Shown in pieces: positions 137 to 30,189 of a stretch of DNA of 64,000 bases. Each line of letters opens with the position of its first letter. Position 1 is the first letter of the stretch. The notes beneath the pieces are model-generated. The model was not told the origin of the DNA and ran no database searches. It was given only the letters and a program-made list of their open reading frames with translations. The position numbers were made by a program, and so were the translations under genes. The DNA is from a virus: IMG/VR virus record IMGVR_UViG_3300010371_000030, positions 1 to 64,000 of that record; one strand, written 5' to 3'.

Positions 137-1201
137 CTACGCCTTGAGAGCGTCGACAACGTCAGTGACGTCGGGAGCGAGCGCGGCACCGAGGAAAGAG
201 ATGTCCACGCCCTTGATCCCCCTGAAACGCTTCTCCGCCACGGGGATGGGGCTGGCGAAACGAATGAAGGAGCCGTGGACCTCGGTGCCATCGGGCTCCA
301 CGAGCCCCTTCTCCACGAGCTCATCGAGCGCCTTGTGCGCAGCCTTCGGAGCGCCCTCGGAGGTGGTCACGACGTACACCCCGCCCGGCCGACGCTTGCC
401 GCACTTGCGCTTCTTTTCCACCACGAGCGCTTCCGGCCCCACCGGGGCGAAGTCCTTGACCGCCTCCAGCTTCTCTTCGTCTTCCTCGCCGGACATGATG
501 TACTCGATGCGCTCCGGCACGAAGACACCGAACACCTGGGCGTTGGGCATCTCGCCCGTTCCGCCGCACGCGGGGCACATGTGCTTCTCCACCACCAGAT
601 CTGGATCGAACTTGGTCGGCTGGTGGAGCCAGTAGTTGTAGCGCCTGTAGTCCCAGACGTCGTCATCGACCAGCAGGACGTGTCCGCCCGTGCCCGTCTC
701 GACGGACGCCCGCCCCTCACAGATGACGCACGCGGCGTCTCGCTCGTCCAACGTCCTGATCTTGGCCTCGCGCAGCGCGACGTAGCGCCTGTCGCCCTCG
801 GGCGCCATCAGCTCCCATCCGGCGAAGCCAGCCGCCTCGGGCGCGTGGCGCTTGCGAACGCTGTCGATGGCCTCCTGGAGGGCGATACGCTCCACCGCGC
901 GCTTCCGACACTCGGGGCACTCGACGGGGCCGATGCAATGGGCGCAGGCGGTGGTCTCGCCCTCGTCATGGGCCACGAAGATGGCGACGCCCGGCCGCAT
1001 GAGCGCCTTCCCGGCATCGACCGACGGAAGGCGCTTGGAGATGCCCATCTCCACGGCTTCGTCGGTCCAGTCGCCGATGCCGGGGTAACTGTCGCTGCCG
1101 ATCCACATCAGGTAGGCGCTCGTGATGGCCGGCTCGGGCGGCGGCGCGGGCTTCCTCTTGGTCTTGACGGGCTTGGGTGCGACGCTGGTCGTGGTGTCCA
1201 T
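137..1201 (-). CDS. Hypothetical protein with several CxxC / CxxCxGxG Zn-binding motifs
   Basis: 354-aa ORF with GAGGAG RBS; motifs CAHC, CPEC, CVICEGR, CPACGGTG. Confidence 0.75.
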   Translation of the reverse strand: MDTTTSVAPKPVKTKRKPAPPPEPAITSAYLMWIGSDSYPGIGDWTDEAVEMGISKRLPSVDAGKALMRPGVAIFVAHDEGETTACAHCIGPVECPECRKRAVERIALQEAIDSVRKRHAPEAAGFAGWELMAPEGDRRYVALREAKIRTLDERDAACVICEGRASVETGTGGHVLLVDDDVWDYRRYNYWLHQPTKFDPDLVVEKHMCPACGGTGEMPNAQVFGVFVPERIEYIMSGEEDEEKLEAVKDFAPVGPEALVVEKKRKCGKRRPGGVYVVTTSEGAPKAAHKALDELVEKGLVEPDGTEVHGSFIRFASPIPVAEKRFRGIKGVDISFLGAALAPDVTDVVDALKA

Positions 1202-1226
1202 GGCTGGTCTCCTCGCTTCCAGGGAG

Positions 1227-1255
1227 AGCGTAGCGCGTCCGCTTCCACCCGTCTA
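1227..1255 (-). promoter_or_regulatory. Putative sigma70-like promoter TAGACG-N17-TACGCT
   Basis: Intergenic, 17-nt spacing, -10 matches the TAnnCT seen at other module starts. Confidence 0.45.
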
Positions 1256-3443: not shown

Positions 3444-3792
3444 GGCGCTTGTCTCCGGGCAGCGGAACGTAGTGGGCGATGCCGTGGATCTCCTCCCTCC
3501 ACCACCGCTTCCCTCGGTTGTTCTCGCTGTACCATCGTTGACGCTCGATAGGGCACGCCGGAGCCTCGCCCCGGGCGCGCCACTTGGCCTCGATACGGAA
3601 CCACTCCGCCAGCGCCGGATTGGCAGGCGCCTTCGGGTCGCAGCCGGGGCACCCGAGCCGGTGGTGAATGTCGTCCACCAGCCCGTGTGTGTAATACATG
3701 AACTCCAGCTGGCCCATCTTGGCCATGTCGTCGGTGTACTCGGTGATCCCGATGGCCGACGAGTGCTTGCTGACGGGCTTGTCCGAGTGCAT
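3433..3792 (-). CDS. Hypothetical protein
   Basis: Start MHSDKP overlaps the upstream stop (TGATG); contains CPGC. Confidence 0.55.
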   Translation of the reverse strand: MHSDKPVSKHSSAIGITEYTDDMAKMGQLEFMYYTHGLVDDIHHRLGCPGCDPKAPANPALAEWFRIEAKWRARGEAPACPIERQRWYSENNRGKRWWREEIHGIAHYVPLPGDKRHEV

Positions 3793-4103
3793 CAGCTTGC
3801 CCGTCGGCGGATGTCCAGCGGCGACCGCCTCTTGGCCTTGGCCAGAGCGGGTCCGCCCGGCTTCTTTTCGGGCTCCATCGTGCTGCCGCACTTCAGACAT
3901 CGGTCTAGCCTCTCAGGGTTTCGATGGTGGGAACAGCTAGCCTGGATCGTCTGAATCTCGATCAGCAGGCGTTGGACTTCGCCCTCTTCACGCTCGATGT
4001 CTCGGTGGCTGGCTTGCCCGAGTGGAAGCAGACGCCGCGCCTCCGCCAAGCGTCGCTCCGCCAGTCCAAGATCACGAACCAACTCCCAAGTGTTCGCCGC
4101 CAT
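3792..4103 (-). CDS. Hypothetical protein (coiled coil plus CxH...CxxCG Zn-ribbon)
   Basis: 103-aa ORF with AGGAG RBS. Confidence 0.6.
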   Translation of the reverse strand: MAANTWELVRDLGLAERRLAEARRLLPLGQASHRDIEREEGEVQRLLIEIQTIQASCSHHRNPERLDRCLKCGSTMEPEKKPGGPALAKAKRRSPLDIRRRAS

Positions 4104-4871: not shown

Positions 4872-5038
4872 AGGTCATTCTCCGGGCAAGCGGGGTTGAG
4901 GCACTCATACGTGACGATGTCGGCGTCGCTCTCTCCATCTCCGCTTACGGCACCGTTGGGATGCTCGTCATCGAGCGTGACGCTGATCTCTCGCGTGATC
5001 GTCTCGTTGAGCACTTGCCCGCACGTCTCGCAACGCAT
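4868..5038 (-). CDS. Small Zn-ribbon protein (56 aa, absent from the ORF track)
   Basis: Translated by hand: MRCETCGQVLNETITREISVTLDDEHPNGAVSGDGESDADIVTYECLNPACPENDL; start overlaps the SbcC stop and stop overlaps the RuvC start. Confidence 0.7.
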   Translation of the reverse strand: MRCETCGQVLNETITREISVTLDDEHPNGAVSGDGESDADIVTYECLNPACPENDL

Positions 5039-6933
5039 CACGCCACCTCCAGCGTTGACACGCCATCCTTCTTCACGACTGTGATCGCTCGCTCGAACAC
5101 CTCAGCAACGTCTTGCTCGTGGCTGACGACGAAGATGGAGCCACGACGCGAACGAAGCGAGTGAAGCAAGTGGAGTACGCGCTGACGCCCCTCGGCATCG
5201 AGTCCGTCAAGACACTCATCGAGGCAAAGCAAGTCGATGAACGCACCTTCACGAGAGCAAGCGAGATCCATCAGCGCGAAGTCAGTAGCCACGGACATCT
5301 TCTTGAACTGCCCTCCGCTCGGAGGATAACCGTCCACTCCCTCGATGCTCCAGTTGATGCCGATCTCATCTCGATACTCGCCCTTGGCCTTGAGCTCTCG
5401 TTGGGTGCTGAACGTCATCGTGATGTCGCCATCGGCGAGCACTTCCAAGTAGTGGTTCGCGCGCTCGGTGAGATACGGCATCCACTTGTCGAGTGCGAAC
5501 GAGGGCAACCCAGTCGGGCCGAAGCCGCGCATCCAGAACTCAAAGTGAGCTCGTCTGTTCGTGACGGCATCCAACTCCGCTTGCGTCGTCTCGATGAGCG
5601 CGTTGAGCTCATCGACGCGAGCACGCGCGGTCTCCAACCGAGACGTATGTGGATTGGTCTCTGCCGCGATGGACTTCGCTTCATCCAACTTCGCTCTTGC
5701 CGAGGCGGCGACGACATCGACACGACGGCCGTGATCGCGACCTTCGTTCAACTCATCAAGAGCGTTGGCGATCAAGTCATCGTGACGTCTGACTTCGCGT
5801 GAGGCTCGCCGGGCTGCGTCGCGCCTCTTGAACTCATCGGCAAGTGACGCGCGAGCAACGCTCAACCGCTTGCTCGCGTCATGCCACTCATCGGTCTTGG
5901 TCTCAAAGTCAGCGCGCATCTGAACGACGTGCTCATGCGCCGTGCTACCCTCCGCGAGAGAGCTGGAGCAAGTCGGGCACGTGCTCTCGCCCTCCAACGC
6001 AGCCAGACGTTCATCGATGCTCTGCGCCTCACGCTCTGCCGTGCGCACTTCCACGTCGATGTCGTTGACTCGCTCCTGGAGCGTAGTGATCGAAGCCTCG
6101 ATGGCGTCGATGCCCGATGCTGACTTGGAGCGCTCCGCACGCTCGCTTCGGAGCGAAGCCAATCGCGTCTCGATGTCGTCCAAGTCGGGCGCACTCGCGC
6201 GGAGCGTCTTAGCTTCCGTCAGGAAGGCACGAGCGCTCTCCCGGGCGGCGACCACTCGGTCACGACGTTCATCGTCCCAGGCGCTGGTCTCTGCCTCCAG
6301 CCCATCCAAGTCGATCTCATCGACACGAGCCCGATACGTCGCGAGGGTTGCCGACAGCGATGACTCCGACCGTTTGAGGTCAAGGTTCTGCTCCTTGGTC
6401 CACGCGTGGCAGACACCGTAGATGTTCGTGCGGAGGATGCGTTGAAGAACTTCCTTGCGCTGGGCGTCAGTCACTTCCGGCTCTGCGAAGCGCTTGTTGT
6501 CGCGCTGAGCATACATGGAGGTGTTCCTGAACGCTTGGAAGTCGATTCCAAGCAGCTCGTTGATTCGCGCTTGAAGCTCGGTCCTGCTCCCGTCTTGTAG
6601 AGCACCGTCACGGTAGAGCCGGAGGCGAGGCGCGCCCTTTCGACGATCACGCTCCCATCGCCACGACGTCTCTCCGTCCGTCGCCTCTACCTTCGCGCTC
6701 GCGCACTTGGTACCCAAGCGGATGATCTTGTCAGGGTCCTCATCGTCGATAGTCTCACCGTACAACGCCCACGTGATGACCTTGAAGACGTTGGACTTGC
6801 CTGAGCCGTTGCTCTTGGCCGCCTCGGAGTCACAGTTGTGACCGCCGATCCATACCAGCCCCTGGCGATGGAGAGGCATCTCCAGTCGCTCGAATGAGCA
6901 GGCGTTAGTCGCGGTGACCGAAAGCAGATCCAT
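5038..6933 (-). CDS. sbcC: SbcC/Rad50 (T4 gp46-like) recombination ATPase
   Basis: Walker A NGSGKS, coiled coil, Zn-hook CPTC, signature SGGQ, Walker B LDECLDGLD, H-loop VSH. Confidence 0.93.
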   Translation of the reverse strand: MDLLSVTATNACSFERLEMPLHRQGLVWIGGHNCDSEAAKSNGSGKSNVFKVITWALYGETIDDEDPDKIIRLGTKCASAKVEATDGETSWRWERDRRKGAPRLRLYRDGALQDGSRTELQARINELLGIDFQAFRNTSMYAQRDNKRFAEPEVTDAQRKEVLQRILRTNIYGVCHAWTKEQNLDLKRSESSLSATLATYRARVDEIDLDGLEAETSAWDDERRDRVVAARESARAFLTEAKTLRASAPDLDDIETRLASLRSERAERSKSASGIDAIEASITTLQERVNDIDVEVRTAEREAQSIDERLAALEGESTCPTCSSSLAEGSTAHEHVVQMRADFETKTDEWHDASKRLSVARASLADEFKRRDAARRASREVRRHDDLIANALDELNEGRDHGRRVDVVAASARAKLDEAKSIAAETNPHTSRLETARARVDELNALIETTQAELDAVTNRRAHFEFWMRGFGPTGLPSFALDKWMPYLTERANHYLEVLADGDITMTFSTQRELKAKGEYRDEIGINWSIEGVDGYPPSGGQFKKMSVATDFALMDLACSREGAFIDLLCLDECLDGLDAEGRQRVLHLLHSLRSRRGSIFVVSHEQDVAEVFERAITVVKKDGVSTLEVA

Positions 6934-7498
6934 ACGCACCCACCTGGATGACTTCACGTCCGGAGATGACGGCGCTGCGATGACGTGACTTCTGTTCCTC
7001 AACCCACATCGCGTCGGTGACGTTGAATTGGAAGTCAGCCCTGGTGGCTCGCAGCGAGATGTTGAGAGCACGACCCTTCATTGGGTCGACTCCATAGGCT
7101 CGCTCGATGTCACGTGACCACAGCGTGATGATCTGTGCGAGGCGGTTCTTCAGCTGGTTCCACGATGGAGACGTGGGGTGGAAAAACTCCGTTGGAAAGA
7201 CGATGCTGCCGTTGATCTCCTTCAGCACGGACTTAACATCCACGAGCAACGGGCCCGCGTGTGACATCAGCTTCCAAAGGCTCGGGTCCATCGACGCTTC
7301 AAGAGCGTCGTACTCATCGGCGCGGCGTCTGTATTCCTCCTCACGCTCAGCTGCCGTCGTGAACCTTGCCGCGAACGTCGTTGTCTCGGTCGGCAGCCGC
7401 AGCGACGGCTCCCGAACGAACAGCACCGGGGAAGAGGCGCCCGGACTCGCGATGTCTGGCCCCCGCTCGAAACGTCGGCGCATCTCATCGAGCTTCAT
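6905..7498 (-). CDS. Hypothetical protein
   Basis: 197-aa ORF coupled between sbcD and sbcC. Confidence 0.7.
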   Translation of the reverse strand: MKLDEMRRRFERGPDIASPGASSPVLFVREPSLRLPTETTTFAARFTTAAEREEEYRRRADEYDALEASMDPSLWKLMSHAGPLLVDVKSVLKEINGSIVFPTEFFHPTSPSWNQLKNRLAQIITLWSRDIERAYGVDPMKGRALNISLRATRADFQFNVTDAMWVEEQKSRHRSAVISGREVIQVGAYGSAFGHRD

Positions 7499-8625
7499 GC
7501 CATCCTCCGGCGTGCCTCTTCCAGCGCCTGACGACCGATGCTCTTGAGCAAGTCGACGTCCAAACCATTCGTGTCAACGTCAGCGGAAGCAACGTAAGCA
7601 TCCGCCATCGCCTCCGGCGTCATCGACGTCTCGACGGACGATGCGACCAGACGCTCTGAATGGTGGTAGATGGGACGATGTTTGGCCGAGGCTCGGATGC
7701 CTTCGCCCTTCAAACGTTCGATGTACTCATACACGGCCGGACGGACCGCCACCCACTCGGGCTGAGTGGCCTCGACGGTGACACGTAGGTAGTCGCCGGG
7801 GCGCGCCTCGTGCCGAGTCTTGGCCGCGCTTCCCCGCCACGCAGCGCTCCACATTAGCGGCGCACCGCCGTCCACGAACGTCTCGTCACGTTGCCCGTCG
7901 GAAGTGAAGTCCACGAGCCAGTACCCCGCGGCACGTCCCTCGTCATCCATGCGATGGTGCATGGGCGCTCCGAGGTATCGGCCCTTGTCGTCAGGGCCGA
8001 ACATCTGCGGCGTATGGAAGTGCCCGCTGAGCACGTGGTCGAATCCATCACAGACTTCGTTCGCATCGAGCCCATCGTCGCATGTCCATCCGAGGTGCGT
8101 ACACCCGAGGATGCTATGGTGTAGCAGCAGAACGTTGACGGGGCGTTCCGCCACATTCGCGGAACGGATGGCGCCCAACGCTCGCTCGGTGTGGCTGTAC
8201 TCGACGGGATGGAAGCGCAACCAATCGTCGATATCGATGTACGCAGCAGCACTTCTCGCACCGATGTACTGGACGTCTCGACGCCCCATCTTGCCGAACG
8301 CTTCCACCGTAAACCGCCCGCCCGACGTCGACACCGCGTCGTGGTTGCCCGGCAGGATGTACTTGGGCCCAGGCAGCGACGTAATTGCCTCGACGGTAGC
8401 TGTAAGCGTCACCGCGTCGACCAGCGACTTGTCGAACAGGTCACCTAGAATGTAGGTGGCAGCGGGCTTCGCCTCCTTCACGGTCTGTTCCACGCGCGAC
8501 CACAACGCCAGTTGGTCGTTGAGTCGGTCGGTCACGCCATCGGCGACCAGCTGCGCTTGAGGCAGCTTGTTCGACATATGGATGTCCGAGATGAACAGAG
8601 CACGATAGGAGTGAACCCGGGGCAT
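7495..8625 (-). CDS. sbcD: SbcD/Mre11 (T4 gp47-like) metallophosphoesterase nuclease
   Basis: SDIH, GDLFD, PGNHD, LHH and SGHFH motifs. Confidence 0.92.
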   Translation of the reverse strand: MPRVHSYRALFISDIHMSNKLPQAQLVADGVTDRLNDQLALWSRVEQTVKEAKPAATYILGDLFDKSLVDAVTLTATVEAITSLPGPKYILPGNHDAVSTSGGRFTVEAFGKMGRRDVQYIGARSAAAYIDIDDWLRFHPVEYSHTERALGAIRSANVAERPVNVLLLHHSILGCTHLGWTCDDGLDANEVCDGFDHVLSGHFHTPQMFGPDDKGRYLGAPMHHRMDDEGRAAGYWLVDFTSDGQRDETFVDGGAPLMWSAAWRGSAAKTRHEARPGDYLRVTVEATQPEWVAVRPAVYEYIERLKGEGIRASAKHRPIYHHSERLVASSVETSMTPEAMADAYVASADVDTNGLDVDLLKSIGRQALEEARRRMA

Positions 8626-8633
8626 CGTTCGCC

Positions 8634-9860
8634 TCACAGCCCGTACGCCGGGCAACCCTCGATACAGTCGCCCGGCGAGGCCAGGCAATCGTCGCTGTGG
8701 TGGATGACCTCGCCCGACTCTGCTGCCGCCTCCGCTTCCTCCACCCAGCCCATCTTGCTCCGGAGTGCCCAGTTGATGTCGGCCGTCATCGTCGCGTTGG
8801 CGGCAAGAGCCTTGGCCGCGGCGATGGCGCCGTTGCCGATGCGCTCATCGTTGTAGGAGAACCATCCGCCCGTCTTGACGACAATCTTCTGGGCGACTGC
8901 CGTCATGAGCAGGGAATAGTGGAAGTCGATGCCTTGGCCGTAGCGAACAAGGAAGCCTGCCTTGCGGAAGGGCGGGGCCACCTTGTTCTTCTTGGCCTGG
9001 GCCTCGCACATGTAACCGACCTTGATGGCGTCTTGGTCGTCGCCCGTCGTCGCGGCGCCATCCGCGGACTCTCGCGATGCCCCCGTGGGCGTGAGCTTGA
9101 GGATGATGCTGGCGTAGAATTTGGGCGCCTCGCCACCGGCAATCTCGTCAGGATCGCCGAACATGACGTTGAGCTTCTTGCGCACCTGGCTGATGAAGAT
9201 CAGCGCCACATCCTCCTTGTAGCAGGCCGCGCAGAGCTTGGGCAACTCCGCGGACCAGATGCGCGCCTCCGGCGCCACGTGTGCGTCGCCGGGCTGCCCG
9301 TCGATGCGACACTTGGCGATGGCCGCGTTGATCGAGTCCAAGACGATGACGATGGGGACGCGACGCCCCAGACGCTGTCGGTGTGCAGCCGCCAAGTCGA
9401 TGATCTTGTACATCATCTTGACGATGTCTTCCAGCGTACCGTCTTGGCTGATGATCAGACGGTTCACGTCCACGCCGATGGCAGCAGCGTACTCCGGATC
9501 CAGAGTGTGCTCCTTGTCGATGTAGACGGCCAAGCCGCCCTCTTGCTGACATTGGGCGACGATGTGTAGCGCCAGCGTCGTCTTCCCGCAACCCTCCTTG
9601 CCGTGGAGGATGGTCAACCGAGCGAGCGGGACGCCCCCACGTCCCAACGCGACGTCCAGACCAGGGCATTGCGTCGAGATGACACCCCTGATCTTGAACG
9701 CCATGGCATCCGAACCCACGAACATAGCGACGTCATCGCCGCCGCAGGCCGCTCGGATTCCTCCGAGGACCTCAACGGCGATGTCGTCATCTGCGAACGC
9801 GGGGGATGCGGCCGTGGCAGCGTCCGTGGCGGACGCTTTGGACTTCTTTTTGGCCGCCAT
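8634..9860 (-). CDS. recA: RecA/UvsX recombinase
   Basis: LDVALGRGGVP, GKEGCGKTT, YIDKEHTLD, IVLDS, GGEAPKFYAS and KKNKVAPPFR. Confidence 0.96.
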   Translation of the reverse strand: MAAKKKSKASATDAATAASPAFADDDIAVEVLGGIRAACGGDDVAMFVGSDAMAFKIRGVISTQCPGLDVALGRGGVPLARLTILHGKEGCGKTTLALHIVAQCQQEGGLAVYIDKEHTLDPEYAAAIGVDVNRLIISQDGTLEDIVKMMYKIIDLAAAHRQRLGRRVPIVIVLDSINAAIAKCRIDGQPGDAHVAPEARIWSAELPKLCAACYKEDVALIFISQVRKKLNVMFGDPDEIAGGEAPKFYASIILKLTPTGASRESADGAATTGDDQDAIKVGYMCEAQAKKNKVAPPFRKAGFLVRYGQGIDFHYSLLMTAVAQKIVVKTGGWFSYNDERIGNGAIAAAKALAANATMTADINWALRSKMGWVEEAEAAAESGEVIHHSDDCLASPGDCIEGCPAYGL

Positions 9861-9869
9861 GGGTGTGGA

Positions 9870-11495
9870 CTACTTCTTGGCGACGATGGCGGGCTTGGCG
9901 GCGGGCTTGGCAGGAACGGCCGGCTTGGCCGCGGCAGGCTTCGCGGCGACGGGAGCGGGCTTCGCCGGAGCCGGGGCGGGCGTCGCCGCCGCCGCGGGCT
10001 TCGCCGCCGCGACGGCCGGCTTGGCGGCTGCCTTGGGCGGAGCGGTCATGCCCTTGAGCTCCGCCTCCAGCTCTTCCAGGCCCAGATCTTCGTCGGCCGG
10101 AGGCGCGGCCGGCTTGGCCGCGGGCTTGGCAGCCGCGGCTGCTGCCGGCTTCGCGGCGGGCGTCGCCTTGGCGGCGACGGCCGGCTTGGCAGGAGCAGGC
10201 GCCGGCTTGGCAGCGGCCGGCTTCGCCGGAGCCGGGGCGGGCTTCGGCGCGGGCTTGGCGGACGCCACCGCCTTCTTGGGCGGAGGGGGCGGAGGCTCCT
10301 CGGGCTCCTCGGCCACCTCTTCCTCCGCTTCTGCTTCTGCCTCCACCTCGGCCGTCTCCTCGGCCACCTCTTCCTCCGCCTCCGCGGGCTCCTCGGGCGT
10401 CTCCTCGGCTGCCTCTTCCTCCGCGGCGGCTTCCTCCGCCTCGGGCTCCGCCTCGGCCGCCGCCTGCTCGGCCAAGTAGATGGCCACGGGGCAGTCTTCC
10501 ACGCAATCCTCGCCACCCGCCTCGATGCACTCCTGGGAGTGCTCGATGGTCTCCTGCTCCGCCTCCGCCTCGGCCGGCTCCTCGGACTCGCCAGCTGCCT
10601 CTGCCTCCAGCTCTGCTTCGTCGTCGGGCACCACTTCCTCGGGCTCGGGCGCCGGGGCAGCGCGCTTGGGGGCGGGCTTCGCCGCCGCCGTGCGCTTGGC
10701 CGGAGCCGGCGCGTCATCGTCGAATTCGGCCGCGTCACCGGACACCGCCGCTCCGGAGAGCAGGGCCTCCACCTCTGCGGGCGTCTTGAGGAAGTTGCCG
10801 ACGATGCGCCACAGGTCACAGTCGCCGCCCACCTTCATCGCGTCGGCCAGCTTGGCGCGCAGGCCCTTCGACAGCACCATCGCCTTCTTGGCCGTCTCGG
10901 TGTGTACCTTGCCTTCGTACTTGGTGTTGCGGTCCTTGCCGGACTTGATGAGGCGGACCAGGATCGCCGCGTTCGGGTCCGTGATGTCGCCGTAGTCGAA
11001 GAACACGCCGGTGATGCCGTCGTACACCTGCTTGCCGCCGAAGTACACGCCCGGCTTCGGATTGGCCTCCATGCTCCAGAGAGACTTGGAATCCTTCCGG
11101 AAGCCCAGGACGGTCATGCCGAACATGAAGCGCGTCTGCGGGCGCATGTCGTCGATCTCGTCGTCCGTCAGCGTGCCGGAGGCCAGCGCCTCCGCCATCG
11201 GGCACACTTCGGGGATGCGGATCTTCTTGGCCTTGAACGCCTCCTTCAGGAAGGGATGGGCGATGACGGGGTTTTTCTCCTTGTCCAGGGAGACCACCAT
11301 GGACTTGGACTTGCCGACGCCGTAGTGGACGGTCACCGGAATGTACGGCAACCCGGTCGTCGGGGCGAACGTGTCGTTGTCGCGGCACGGCGGGTGGATG
11401 TACACCAGCGTTTCGCCGTTCTCCAGCTGGATGAAGTCACCACCCCTCTGGTGTGACTCCGCATCCTCCCTCATCTTGTTGACATCTACACCCAT
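9870..11495 (-). CDS. Probable single-stranded DNA-binding protein (gp32-like) with acidic and then Pro/Ala/Lys-rich tail
   Basis: N-terminal domain (VCPMAE...DYGDITDP...SGKDRNTKY) resembles phage gp32-like SSBs; sits between the UvsY-like gene and recA. Confidence 0.65.
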   Translation of the reverse strand: MGVDVNKMREDAESHQRGGDFIQLENGETLVYIHPPCRDNDTFAPTTGLPYIPVTVHYGVGKSKSMVVSLDKEKNPVIAHPFLKEAFKAKKIRIPEVCPMAEALASGTLTDDEIDDMRPQTRFMFGMTVLGFRKDSKSLWSMEANPKPGVYFGGKQVYDGITGVFFDYGDITDPNAAILVRLIKSGKDRNTKYEGKVHTETAKKAMVLSKGLRAKLADAMKVGGDCDLWRIVGNFLKTPAEVEALLSGAAVSGDAAEFDDDAPAPAKRTAAAKPAPKRAAPAPEPEEVVPDDEAELEAEAAGESEEPAEAEAEQETIEHSQECIEAGGEDCVEDCPVAIYLAEQAAAEAEPEAEEAAAEEEAAEETPEEPAEAEEEVAEETAEVEAEAEAEEEVAEEPEEPPPPPPKKAVASAKPAPKPAPAPAKPAAAKPAPAPAKPAVAAKATPAAKPAAAAAAKPAAKPAAPPADEDLGLEELEAELKGMTAPPKAAAKPAVAAAKPAAAATPAPAPAKPAPVAAKPAAAKPAVPAKPAAKPAIVAKK

Positions 11496-11506
11496 CGCAT
11501 CCTCCT

Positions 11507-12043
11507 TCAATCGTCCGACATCTTGTGGTGCTTCGCCATCGGCCCTTCCCGACGCGGGCGTGGCTCTGAATCTACGTCACCGGAGCCAGCGCGCGCTGAC
11601 CGAGCCGGCCGGGGCGCTGCTGGCGTGTGGAGTCCAATCGTCTCCACCTCCGAACGCACGTTTGCTCCCTTGGATTGGAGCACATTCGCCTTCTTGGCGA
11701 AGGCATCGAACATGCCGCGAGCGGTGGCGATGTTTCCCTCGCAGCGGGCGATGTCAGCCTTGTGCTTCCTGAACTCGGCATCTCCATCGATGGCCGCCTT
11801 GACGCGCCACTCGGCCAGCGTCGCCGGGAGCCCCCCGACCTTGCGCGAGCGGAACGCCCTGTATGCGGCGTCCACCTCGATGAGCTCACGCTCCGCCTCG
11901 CCCATGACGCTCGCCCACCACGCCATCTGCGAGGCGACTTGAGTCATGTCGTTGCTGATGTCACTGATCACCAAGTCGGCGGTGTTCACCTCGACTTGTG
12001 TCCCCGCGACGACGATGATACGCTTGTTGAAGTCGACAGGCAT
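11507..12043 (-). CDS. UvsY-like recombination mediator (helical)
   Basis: Helical protein (AEWRVKAAIDGD...DAFAKKANVLQSKGANVR); position next to SSB and RecA. Confidence 0.5.
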   Translation of the reverse strand: MPVDFNKRIIVVAGTQVEVNTADLVISDISNDMTQVASQMAWWASVMGEAERELIEVDAAYRAFRSRKVGGLPATLAEWRVKAAIDGDAEFRKHKADIARCEGNIATARGMFDAFAKKANVLQSKGANVRSEVETIGLHTPAAPRPARSARAGSGDVDSEPRPRREGPMAKHHKMSDD

Positions 12044-29067: not shown

Positions 29068-30189
29068 TCAAGACCACCTGGAAGCGCCAGCCCGTTTGGC
29101 GGCTGCCAACTTCGCTTGGAGCCGGGGAAGGCGCGCCCCAGTCCAACGCTTGGCGTTGTCGATGGCGGCATACGCTTCCTTGGTGGTGCTGTTACCAGGG
29201 TCCAACTTGCCTCTGTCGTCAGACCCATCGATGGGAGCGAGCAAGGCGATGTAGACATCCGTGAAGTGGACCGCCAAACGCGTCGCGACCTTGATCGGCG
29301 CTTCCATCTCTTCGGGGTCCAGCATCACGGTCATCGATGTACTCGACGGCAACGACATGAGCATAGACATCTGCTCGTCGTGAAGCTCCTTGCCGCCGAG
29401 AGAGAGCGCGCTGATGGAGTGCTGATACAGCTTCACCGCGTCCAGCGGACCTTCGCACAGAACGACATCGCCAGTGAGCCGGGCCAGGTTCCAGCCGATG
29501 AGCAACCGTCGGAAGTCCGTGCCGGTCGGGTTGAGGTACTTCGGGATCTGGTCGCCAAGCATATCACGAGCCGTGTGGCTTCGTCCGTTGGGACACTCCA
29601 CCGGGATGACGAGGCGCCCCGAGTAGCGCCGTGCGCAGAGTGGCGTGCATTTCTCGCCTTCCCATCCAGGGCAGCCCCTGGAATGCTTGGATCCTTTGGC
29701 TACGAATCCCATGCCCCAAGCACGAGCGGTCGCGCTCTTGATCCCGCGCTCCTTCAGGTACGCGGGCAGCTGCCATACGTCCTTGCCCGCTTTGCTGGCG
29801 TAGCAGGGCCGGAAACCGTCCGGCAGAGCGTCGTCCACGAAGGTGACTTCTGCCACCTCCTGCCCAGCGTGCGGGCGGAGCGCTTGGAGCCGCTCCCGAA
29901 GGCTGACGCTGGTCTCGCGTCGCCGCATCTCCACCGACTGACGGAAGATGAAGCCGTTGGCCTCCGCCTCTGAGATGTCCTCGATGATCGCGATGAGACC
30001 GGCGATACGGCGACCGGCGAGCCCGCACTTGTTGCAGAGATACGCTCCGCTGTCCGTGTTTGCATAGAATCCACCATACCGACGGCACGATGGAGAAGGG
30101 CACACGCCGGTGACCTCCGAGCCGGCCGACGGCCGGAAGCGTTCCAGGTGCTCCTCCATGTAAGCACGGATGTCGAAGCGTCGCGACAC
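29068..30189 (-). CDS. DNA primase (Zn-binding plus TOPRIM domain)
   Basis: CPSPSC...CNKCG, GRLVIP, ARD...PKYLN, LCEGPLDA and MLDP. Confidence 0.9.
   Translation of the reverse strand: MSRRFDIRAYMEEHLERFRPSAGSEVTGVCPSPSCRRYGGFYANTDSGAYLCNKCGLAGRRIAGLIAIIEDISEAEANGFIFRQSVEMRRRETSVSLRERLQALRPHAGQEVAEVTFVDDALPDGFRPCYASKAGKDVWQLPAYLKERGIKSATARAWGMGFVAKGSKHSRGCPGWEGEKCTPLCARRYSGRLVIPVECPNGRSHTARDMLGDQIPKYLNPTGTDFRRLLIGWNLARLTGDVVLCEGPLDAVKLYQHSISALSLGGKELHDEQMSMLMSLPSSTSMTVMLDPEEMEAPIKVATRLAVHFTDVYIALLAPIDGSDDRGKLDPGNSTTKEAYAAIDNAKRWTGARLPRLQAKLAAAKRAGASRWS

Follow-up and report, generated by a model that had tools for sequence, protein, structure and literature searches.

A His-Cys3 module with ferredoxin-like sequence in the RecA tail and SSB linker of a virus genome, a candidate metal-dependent docking tag

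The first 64,000 nucleotides (64 kb, the window) of a single 105,832-bp virus record (IMG/VR IMGVR_UViG_3300010371_000030) encode, on the minus strand, a RecA/UvsX-like recombinase and, in the adjacent gene, a gp32-type single-stranded DNA (ssDNA)-binding protein (SSB), each of which carries within an acidic segment one copy of a small module containing a His, a Ser and three Cys residues. We find this module to be real, conserved, portable and ferredoxin-like in sequence. Metal binding, the type of metal and a docking role we infer: on present evidence it is rather probable that this portable, predicted metal-binding module acts, within the acidic tails, as a metal-dependent docking tag common to RecA and SSB.

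An original prediction, made from the letters of the window, had proposed that the pattern H-S-x2-C-x6/7-C-x3-C recurs in three replication proteins. The three peptides are indeed encoded at 8652..8699 (RecA), 10491..10541 (SSB) and 29635..29685 (a DnaG-type primase), all on the minus strand, and in the comparison with chance that had been suggested, a six-frame scan of the full 105,832 bp returned exactly these three sites, against some 0.0002-0.001 expected per proteome for an independent and identically distributed composition, an expectation good to an order of magnitude only since the random and shuffled gene sets are imperfect (greedy calls, high-GC genome). The RecA and SSB copies agree well beyond this pattern, having in common an Ile before the His, an acidic residue before the first Cys (Cys1) and Ile or Leu after it, a Gly before the second Cys (Cys2), and the elements D-C-[IV]-E and C-P; about 12 of 18 positions are common to both. 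Across five aligned instances (alignment A4) the His, the Ser and the three Cys are invariant, and the consensus I-[EHQ]-H-S-x-[ED]-C-[IL]-x3-G-x1-2-C-[IV]-[ED]-x-C-P-[VA] describes a module of approximately 22-25 residues.

The relationship between the two copies is established by a profile to which neither contributed. P0008 and P0010 are members of a different protein family, encoded on other contigs, and a profile built from these two sequences alone, i.e. independently of the window copies, finds SSB with an E-value of 1e-10 and the RecA tail with 4.5e-5, these being the only matches among 1104 six-frame open reading frames (ORFs) of the genome. When 1.84 billion representative proteins were searched with a profile of the two window copies, seven matches came back: SSB itself (P0001), P0008 (E 7e-7), P0010 and four repeat proteins that we judged to be noise. 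One antisense ORF (3698..3940, plus strand) with a weak profile match was set aside as spurious because it lies opposite real genes. At the DNA level the RecA and SSB modules are about 59% identical (hand count over aligned codons), and five identical residues are specified by different codons (e.g. Ser by AGC and TCC, Cys by TGT and TGC), indicating that the two do not derive from a recent DNA copy. On these profiles and alignments, the RecA-tail and SSB-linker copies are one real module that is maintained by selection. The original prediction had rated the RecA/SSB match its strongest, which the independent profile bears out; its suggestion of a tiny mobile module is, in the sense of recent DNA mobility, not supported by the differing codons.

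In RecA the module forms the C-terminus of the protein. The gene (8634..9860, minus strand, 408 amino acids) matches Pfam RecA (PF00154; E 1e-58, 199 bits) and RecA_C (PF21096; E 3e-11, 43.8 bits), both above cut-off, together with the UvsX-like PHROG 97 (E 3e-60), and by these domain matches its core is a canonical RecA ATPase with its C-terminal domain. As these domains end near residue 370, residues 371-408 constitute an acidic extension, at the end of which lies the 25-residue module copy (8637..8711, minus strand; I-H-H-S-x2-C-x6-C-x3-C-P, four further residues and the stop), its motif being read directly from the ORF translation. The ATG of the SbcD gene, at 8625, falls beyond the RecA stop, so that no overlapping gene constrains this region. 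Residues 300-408 recovered only the protein itself from 5.8 billion proteins, alignments of phage RecA proteins to that of the window end by residue 371, and the Cys tail is absent from the RecA of every relative fetched. The RecA tail matched no Pfam family, and against the PDB gave weak collagen IV chains on top, followed by the FwdG polyferredoxin (E 8.4, very weak).

The SSB gene occupies 9870..11495 on the minus strand according to its ORF and homologues; the ATG at 11495 agrees with the homologues, and the frame stays open to 11510, where a TTG is also available. The protein comprises a core, a long acidic linker that contains the module, an Ala/Pro/Lys-rich region, a conserved acidic peptide and a basic end. 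The full-length sequence matches no Pfam or PHROG family, including Pfam gp32 (PF08804), for which the homologue P0004 scores 15.6 bits, below the cut-off of 26.8, and a profile of the gp32-like core gave only noise against PDB sequences; the relation emerged instead from a fold search. An AlphaFold2 (AF2) model of the first 260 residues (10716..11495, minus strand; 19-sequence alignment) has a predicted local distance difference test score (pLDDT) of 84.6, and Foldseek identified the RB69 and T4 gp32 cores as its only significant folds (E 8e-7 to 1e-4, probability 1.00, TM-score 0.43-0.59), whilst the core also matches the PHROG 1192 SSB family (E 1.7e-5). The SSB label given in the original prediction is therefore right. 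The linker copy of the module spans 29 residues (10467..10553, minus strand; T-I-E-H-S-x-E-C-I-x6-C-V-E-x-C-P-V-A-I-Y), with the x7 form of the motif lying within the acidic linker. Only one close homologue of SSB, P0002 (58% identity), has its linker complete, and it retains the module as a conserved island within an acidic linker that is otherwise unalignable. Nearer the SSB C-terminus, the acidic peptide D-E-D-L-G-L-x-x-L-x-x-E-L (10056..10094, minus strand; coordinates hand-derived from alignment A1) is found in all gp32-like relatives, with or without Cys modules, and is probably a general partner-binding tip of SSB.

Elsewhere the module is sparsely distributed. Relatives of SSB were sampled as 27 related loci, some of them duplicates of one record, and four database homologues; the majority have an acidic linker only, and the His-Cys3 module is confined to the linkers of this genome and P0002. 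P0008 (149 amino acids) bears the module at its C-terminus, behind an acidic stretch, and its homologue P0010 (154 amino acids) bears two tandem copies. A degenerate DNA-pattern scan of IMG/VR yielded a 66-residue protein that is mostly module (29 bits; locus L035, 6080..6277, minus strand), from a phage of 42% GC, and a weaker candidate of 51 residues (11 bits; L055, 552..707, minus strand) from a phage of 33% GC. Both mini-proteins sit among small early-type genes. The genome studied here has its own member of the P0008/P0010 family, an ORF of about 72 residues outside the window (75062..75280, minus strand; L034:1063-1281), which is homologous to the N-terminal domain of those proteins, lacks the module and has no PHROG match. 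Strict DNA patterns in IMG/VR gave one real match in the x7 form and none in the x6 form, the remainder being chance matches in tiny frames; the x6 form of a pattern anchored on I-x-H-S gave chance matches only; and a DNA-pattern scan of one genome per species for 185,579 prokaryote species returned a single chance match. P0008 found only itself among 5.8 billion proteins and nothing in IMG/VR, the L035 mini-protein found only itself in IMG/VR and no lead in the ESM Atlas (scores of at most 0.83), and no Pfam or PHROG family covers the module above threshold.

Judged from sequence, then, the module is a rare, phage-borne and autonomous mini-domain, present as a fusion to three or more unrelated proteins and, elsewhere, almost by itself. 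Several earlier suggestions hold up on this evidence: that the motif is a reusable coding module, which now extends to the P0008/P0010 family and to a stand-alone mini-protein in other phages; that its RecA and SSB copies occupy a tail and a linker; and that it is not normal for these families, as RecA relatives lack the tail and most gp32-like relatives have an acidic linker only. In the proposed check of close homologues, the 58%-identical SSB kept the module and the RecA relatives were without it.

As to what the module might bind, the SSB piece was compared with 24,736 Pfam models, of which it matched only Fer4_20 (E 0.0086) and Fer4_10 (E 0.027), and with all PDB sequences (phmmer), where the only matches were the iron-sulfur (Fe-S) domain of NfnB and the Thermus 7Fe ferredoxin. 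The five-instance profile A4 likewise matched only 7Fe ferredoxins in the PDB, those of Sulfolobus (E 0.023) and Acidianus (E 0.076), in an alignment that covers the first Cys motif, with its middle Cys replaced, and continues through C-P-V and an aromatic residue. In 7Fe-8S ferredoxins the reported signature has two parts, CX3-10CX3CP and, after it, CX2CX2CX3CP; the first part most often takes the form CX7CX3CP (PMC8928951). The module has the CX3-10CX3C spacing and the Pro of that first motif, Cys1 and Cys2 being separated by x7 in SSB, P0008 and the L035 mini-protein and by x6 in RecA and P0002, in every case followed by x3-C-P. The likeness is weak in score, but in the searches with the SSB copy and with the five-instance profile it is specific. 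A metal site, whether for zinc or Fe-S, had been proposed from the outset and is the natural interpretation; the ferredoxin-type resemblance is new, sequence-based evidence pointing to Fe-S. Because the module reproduces the first half of the 7Fe motif (C-x7-C-x3-C-P-V) in its spacing as well as in its flanking residues, we moderately favour an Fe-S cluster over zinc as the predicted metal.

The main alternative, possible though on balance unlikely, is that the module forms a simple structural knuckle, Zn(His)(Cys)3, without Fe-S chemistry, which would stiffen a short part of the tail into a surface for docking. Such a knuckle would suit a ligand set of one His and three Cys that is invariant in five instances, the position of the module in tails that are exposed and whose proteins come from habitats that seem aerobic, and the frequency of small zinc modules in phage replication proteins, the primase of this genome itself having a normal N-terminal C4 zinc ribbon. 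However, the matches of the SSB copy and the five-instance profile were all of ferredoxin type, and no zinc-finger family or structure was found for either (Pfam, PDB) or for the RecA tail. Whole-protein scans of other instances gave only two non-ferredoxin matches, both sub-threshold: a TRAFD1/XAF1 zinc finger at residues 84-105 of P0008, immediately before the module (14.7 bits, cut-off 27; E 0.029), and, for the L035 mini-protein, DUF7091 (E 0.083), which had no match to this genome and was dropped. Moreover, the ligand spacings (4, 6-7 and 3) are without the usual CxxC or CxxH knuckles, and the continuation C-P-V-x-[IW]-Y is a ferredoxin feature.

A number of observations nevertheless weigh against a docking tag of Fe-S type. 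A His with three Cys is also a classic zinc ligand set. The Pfam scores of the SSB piece are sub-threshold (Fer4_20 16.3 bits, cut-off 25.8; Fer4_10 14.8 bits, cut-off 25.5), and the SSB copy stands alone in this respect, there being no Fer4 match in Pfam for the RecA tail, P0008 or P0010. The second half-motif, CX2CX2CX3CP, occurs in neither RecA nor SSB, nor in any other credible gene of this genome; with this motif missing, scores below threshold and an additional invariant His-Ser, the module by these sequence measures fails full membership of the ferredoxins. Its second copy in P0010 lacks the middle Cys, and AF2 gave no confident model of the P0010 tail (pLDDT below 50, three-sequence alignment). 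Oxygen would readily destroy a cluster exposed on a disordered tail, and soil metagenomes are the source of related fragments. Finally, the RecA tail copy is known from one genome only.

Whether the tag extends to a third protein depends upon the primase (29068..30189, minus strand, 373 amino acids; PHROG 47, E 3e-30, with weak Pfam DNAG_N/Toprim_2 matches), in which the motif lies within a surface loop insertion of about 21 residues (29629..29691, minus strand; coordinates hand-derived from alignments). A genuine, divergent third copy, such that three replication and recombination proteins carry one tag, we regard as doubtful. The insertion does have the five invariant residues, i.e. His, Ser and three Cys with x7 spacing, and the Gly before Cys2, in a pattern expected only some 0.001 times per proteome. 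These six residues are, however, all that it has in common with the RecA and SSB copies: it is without the I-x-H-S start, the Ile or Leu after Cys1, D-C-[IV]-[ED] and C-P, and the pattern was itself fitted post hoc so as to include the primase. With the P0008/P0010 module profile it scores just 5.2-5.5 bits (E about 1), and a genome scan that reported module-profile matches up to E 100 does not list it. It is also lineage-specific, three related primases having no insertion and the closest primase (53% identity) a shorter homologous one with a single Cys. The primase as third copy, part of the original prediction, is accordingly not supported.

We return to the RecA and SSB copies and to the metal-dependent docking tag as their most likely role. 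The disordered acidic C-terminal tails of T4 and RB69 gp32 and of Escherichia coli RecA regulate DNA binding and recruit partners, and it is the position of the module inside such acidic disordered segments that makes docking the most likely function. The His and three Cys would most likely bind a metal, and RecA and SSB would thereby gain one common binding specificity, either for each other, through module-module pairing, or for one joint partner. In ferredoxins a motif contributes its first Cys residues to one cluster and its Cys-Pro to the other, so that in this geometry a single half would be unable to close its own site and would require another half. Half-ferredoxins made by design do homodimerise around clusters (PMC12648291). 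That RecA and SSB have a single copy each, and P0010 two in tandem, fits pairing without proving it. The broader roles once suggested, those of coordinating the replisome and of sensing, are at best unproven.

A more specific form of this proposal, which we consider improbable, is that the modules of the RecA tail and the SSB linker act as natural half-ferredoxins, pairing in trans to form an Fe-S-bridged contact by which the recombinase is anchored to ssDNA coated with SSB. In such a pairing Cys1 and Cys2 would come from one chain and Cys-Pro from the other, with the His as a possible fourth ligand, and the contact could be RecA-SSB, SSB-SSB or RecA-RecA. It would replace a mediator of the UvsY/RecO type and would make the loading of the presynaptic filament dependent on iron and redox state, and the stand-alone mini-proteins of other phages might then be free competitors or adaptors.

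A reversible disulfide switch without metal, close to the redox sensor of the original prediction, which would alter the conformation of the tail under oxidative stress, is very unlikely; three close Cys residues within a flexible acidic segment would permit it, but it leaves the invariant His-Ser and the Cys-Pro unexplained, the ferredoxin-type similarity indicates metal ligation, and the cytoplasm is reducing. Least credible of all is coincidence, or a neutral and recent duplication of short DNA without function: the two genes are adjacent (8634..9860 and 9870..11510) and short acidic low-complexity regions align easily, but this is contradicted by the low DNA identity and differing codons, by the E-values of the independent profile, and by the occurrence of the module in P0002 and in an unrelated phage of 42% GC.

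A different Cys module is found in the linker of one distant gp32-like SSB clade (L007, L008/L025, L019-L021, L024, L026 and P0003-P0005), with four Cys in the pattern C-[FY]-G-x-D-x5-8-C-x2-C-x5-C (L007:10796-10906, L008:10787-10897, L019:986-1090, L021:1908-2012, L024:1109-1219 and L026:10760-10867, and also in P0003-P0005). A relationship between the His-Cys3 and four-Cys modules was considered and rejected (hhalign probability 0.3%), and the existence of this separate module shows that Cys modules recur in the SSB linker. Its profile has no match in the PDB, and the two pieces scanned against Pfam (L008 and L026) had none there; its C-x2-C-x5-C end recalls the Fe-S motif of EndoIII, AddB and WhiB proteins. 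The gene order SSB, RecA, SbcD, SbcC is kept in related viral contigs of 80-116 kb (IMG/VR, metagenomes). In the window, SbcC-like and SbcD-like nuclease genes (5038-8625, minus strand) directly follow RecA, the SbcC having a C-P-T-C zinc hook. A 1269-bp soil metagenome contig (L023, Ga0134128_10563375) encodes the first 88 residues of SSB at 91% identity and ends before the linker; a very close relative of the phage must therefore exist. Separately, an ORF of 371 amino acids at 140-1252 (minus strand) contains a C-x2-C-x5-C-x2-C cluster.

How a recombinase displaces SSB from ssDNA, or cooperates with it there, is a central problem for which the known solutions are acidic SSB tips and the UvsY and RecFOR mediators. 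If the proposal is correct, a portable metal-binding module common to recombinase and SSB would represent a new way of coupling them, and the literature searched contained no account of phage SSB or RecA tails that carry Fe-S or Cys modules. Were an Fe-S cluster bound, the SSB and RecA tails would join the Fe-S-carrying proteins of DNA metabolism and provide a natural example of a fused half-ferredoxin. On a more modest reading, the present analysis defines an unannotated mini-domain family spread over several unrelated phage lineages.

Among known systems, the closest in sequence is the first motif of the 7Fe-8S ferredoxins (Thermus 1H98, Sulfolobus 1XER, Acidianus 2VKR; Fer4 clan), which agrees in the C-x6/7-C-x3-C-P spacing and in the residues that follow each Cys, namely Ile or Leu at the first, [IV]-[ED] at the second and P-V-x-x-aromatic at the third. 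Unlike these proteins, the module amounts to one half-motif of about 22 residues, with neither CX2CX2CX3CP nor the beta-alpha-beta fold, has an invariant His-Ser four residues upstream that is not a ferredoxin ligand, and lies within the disordered acidic tails of proteins of DNA metabolism. Semidoxins (PMC12648291) are similar in being single ferredoxin halves that need a second half to complete their clusters; they are, however, free electron carriers of anaerobes with the full CxxCxxCxxxCP motif, whereas the module lacks the middle Cys and is fused to RecA and SSB, and the homodimerisation of semidoxin designs has only a hypothetical counterpart here. The tails of T4 gp32 and bacterial RecA differ from those of the present phage in having no known Cys module, the zinc site of gp32 being located in its core. 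The Rad50/SbcC zinc hook, in which a CxxC from each of two chains is involved, shows that two DNA-repair proteins can be linked via a common metal by a Cys motif as small as this; its motif is a different one, placed in a coiled coil, and the likeness to a putative RecA-SSB docking tag would be functional only.

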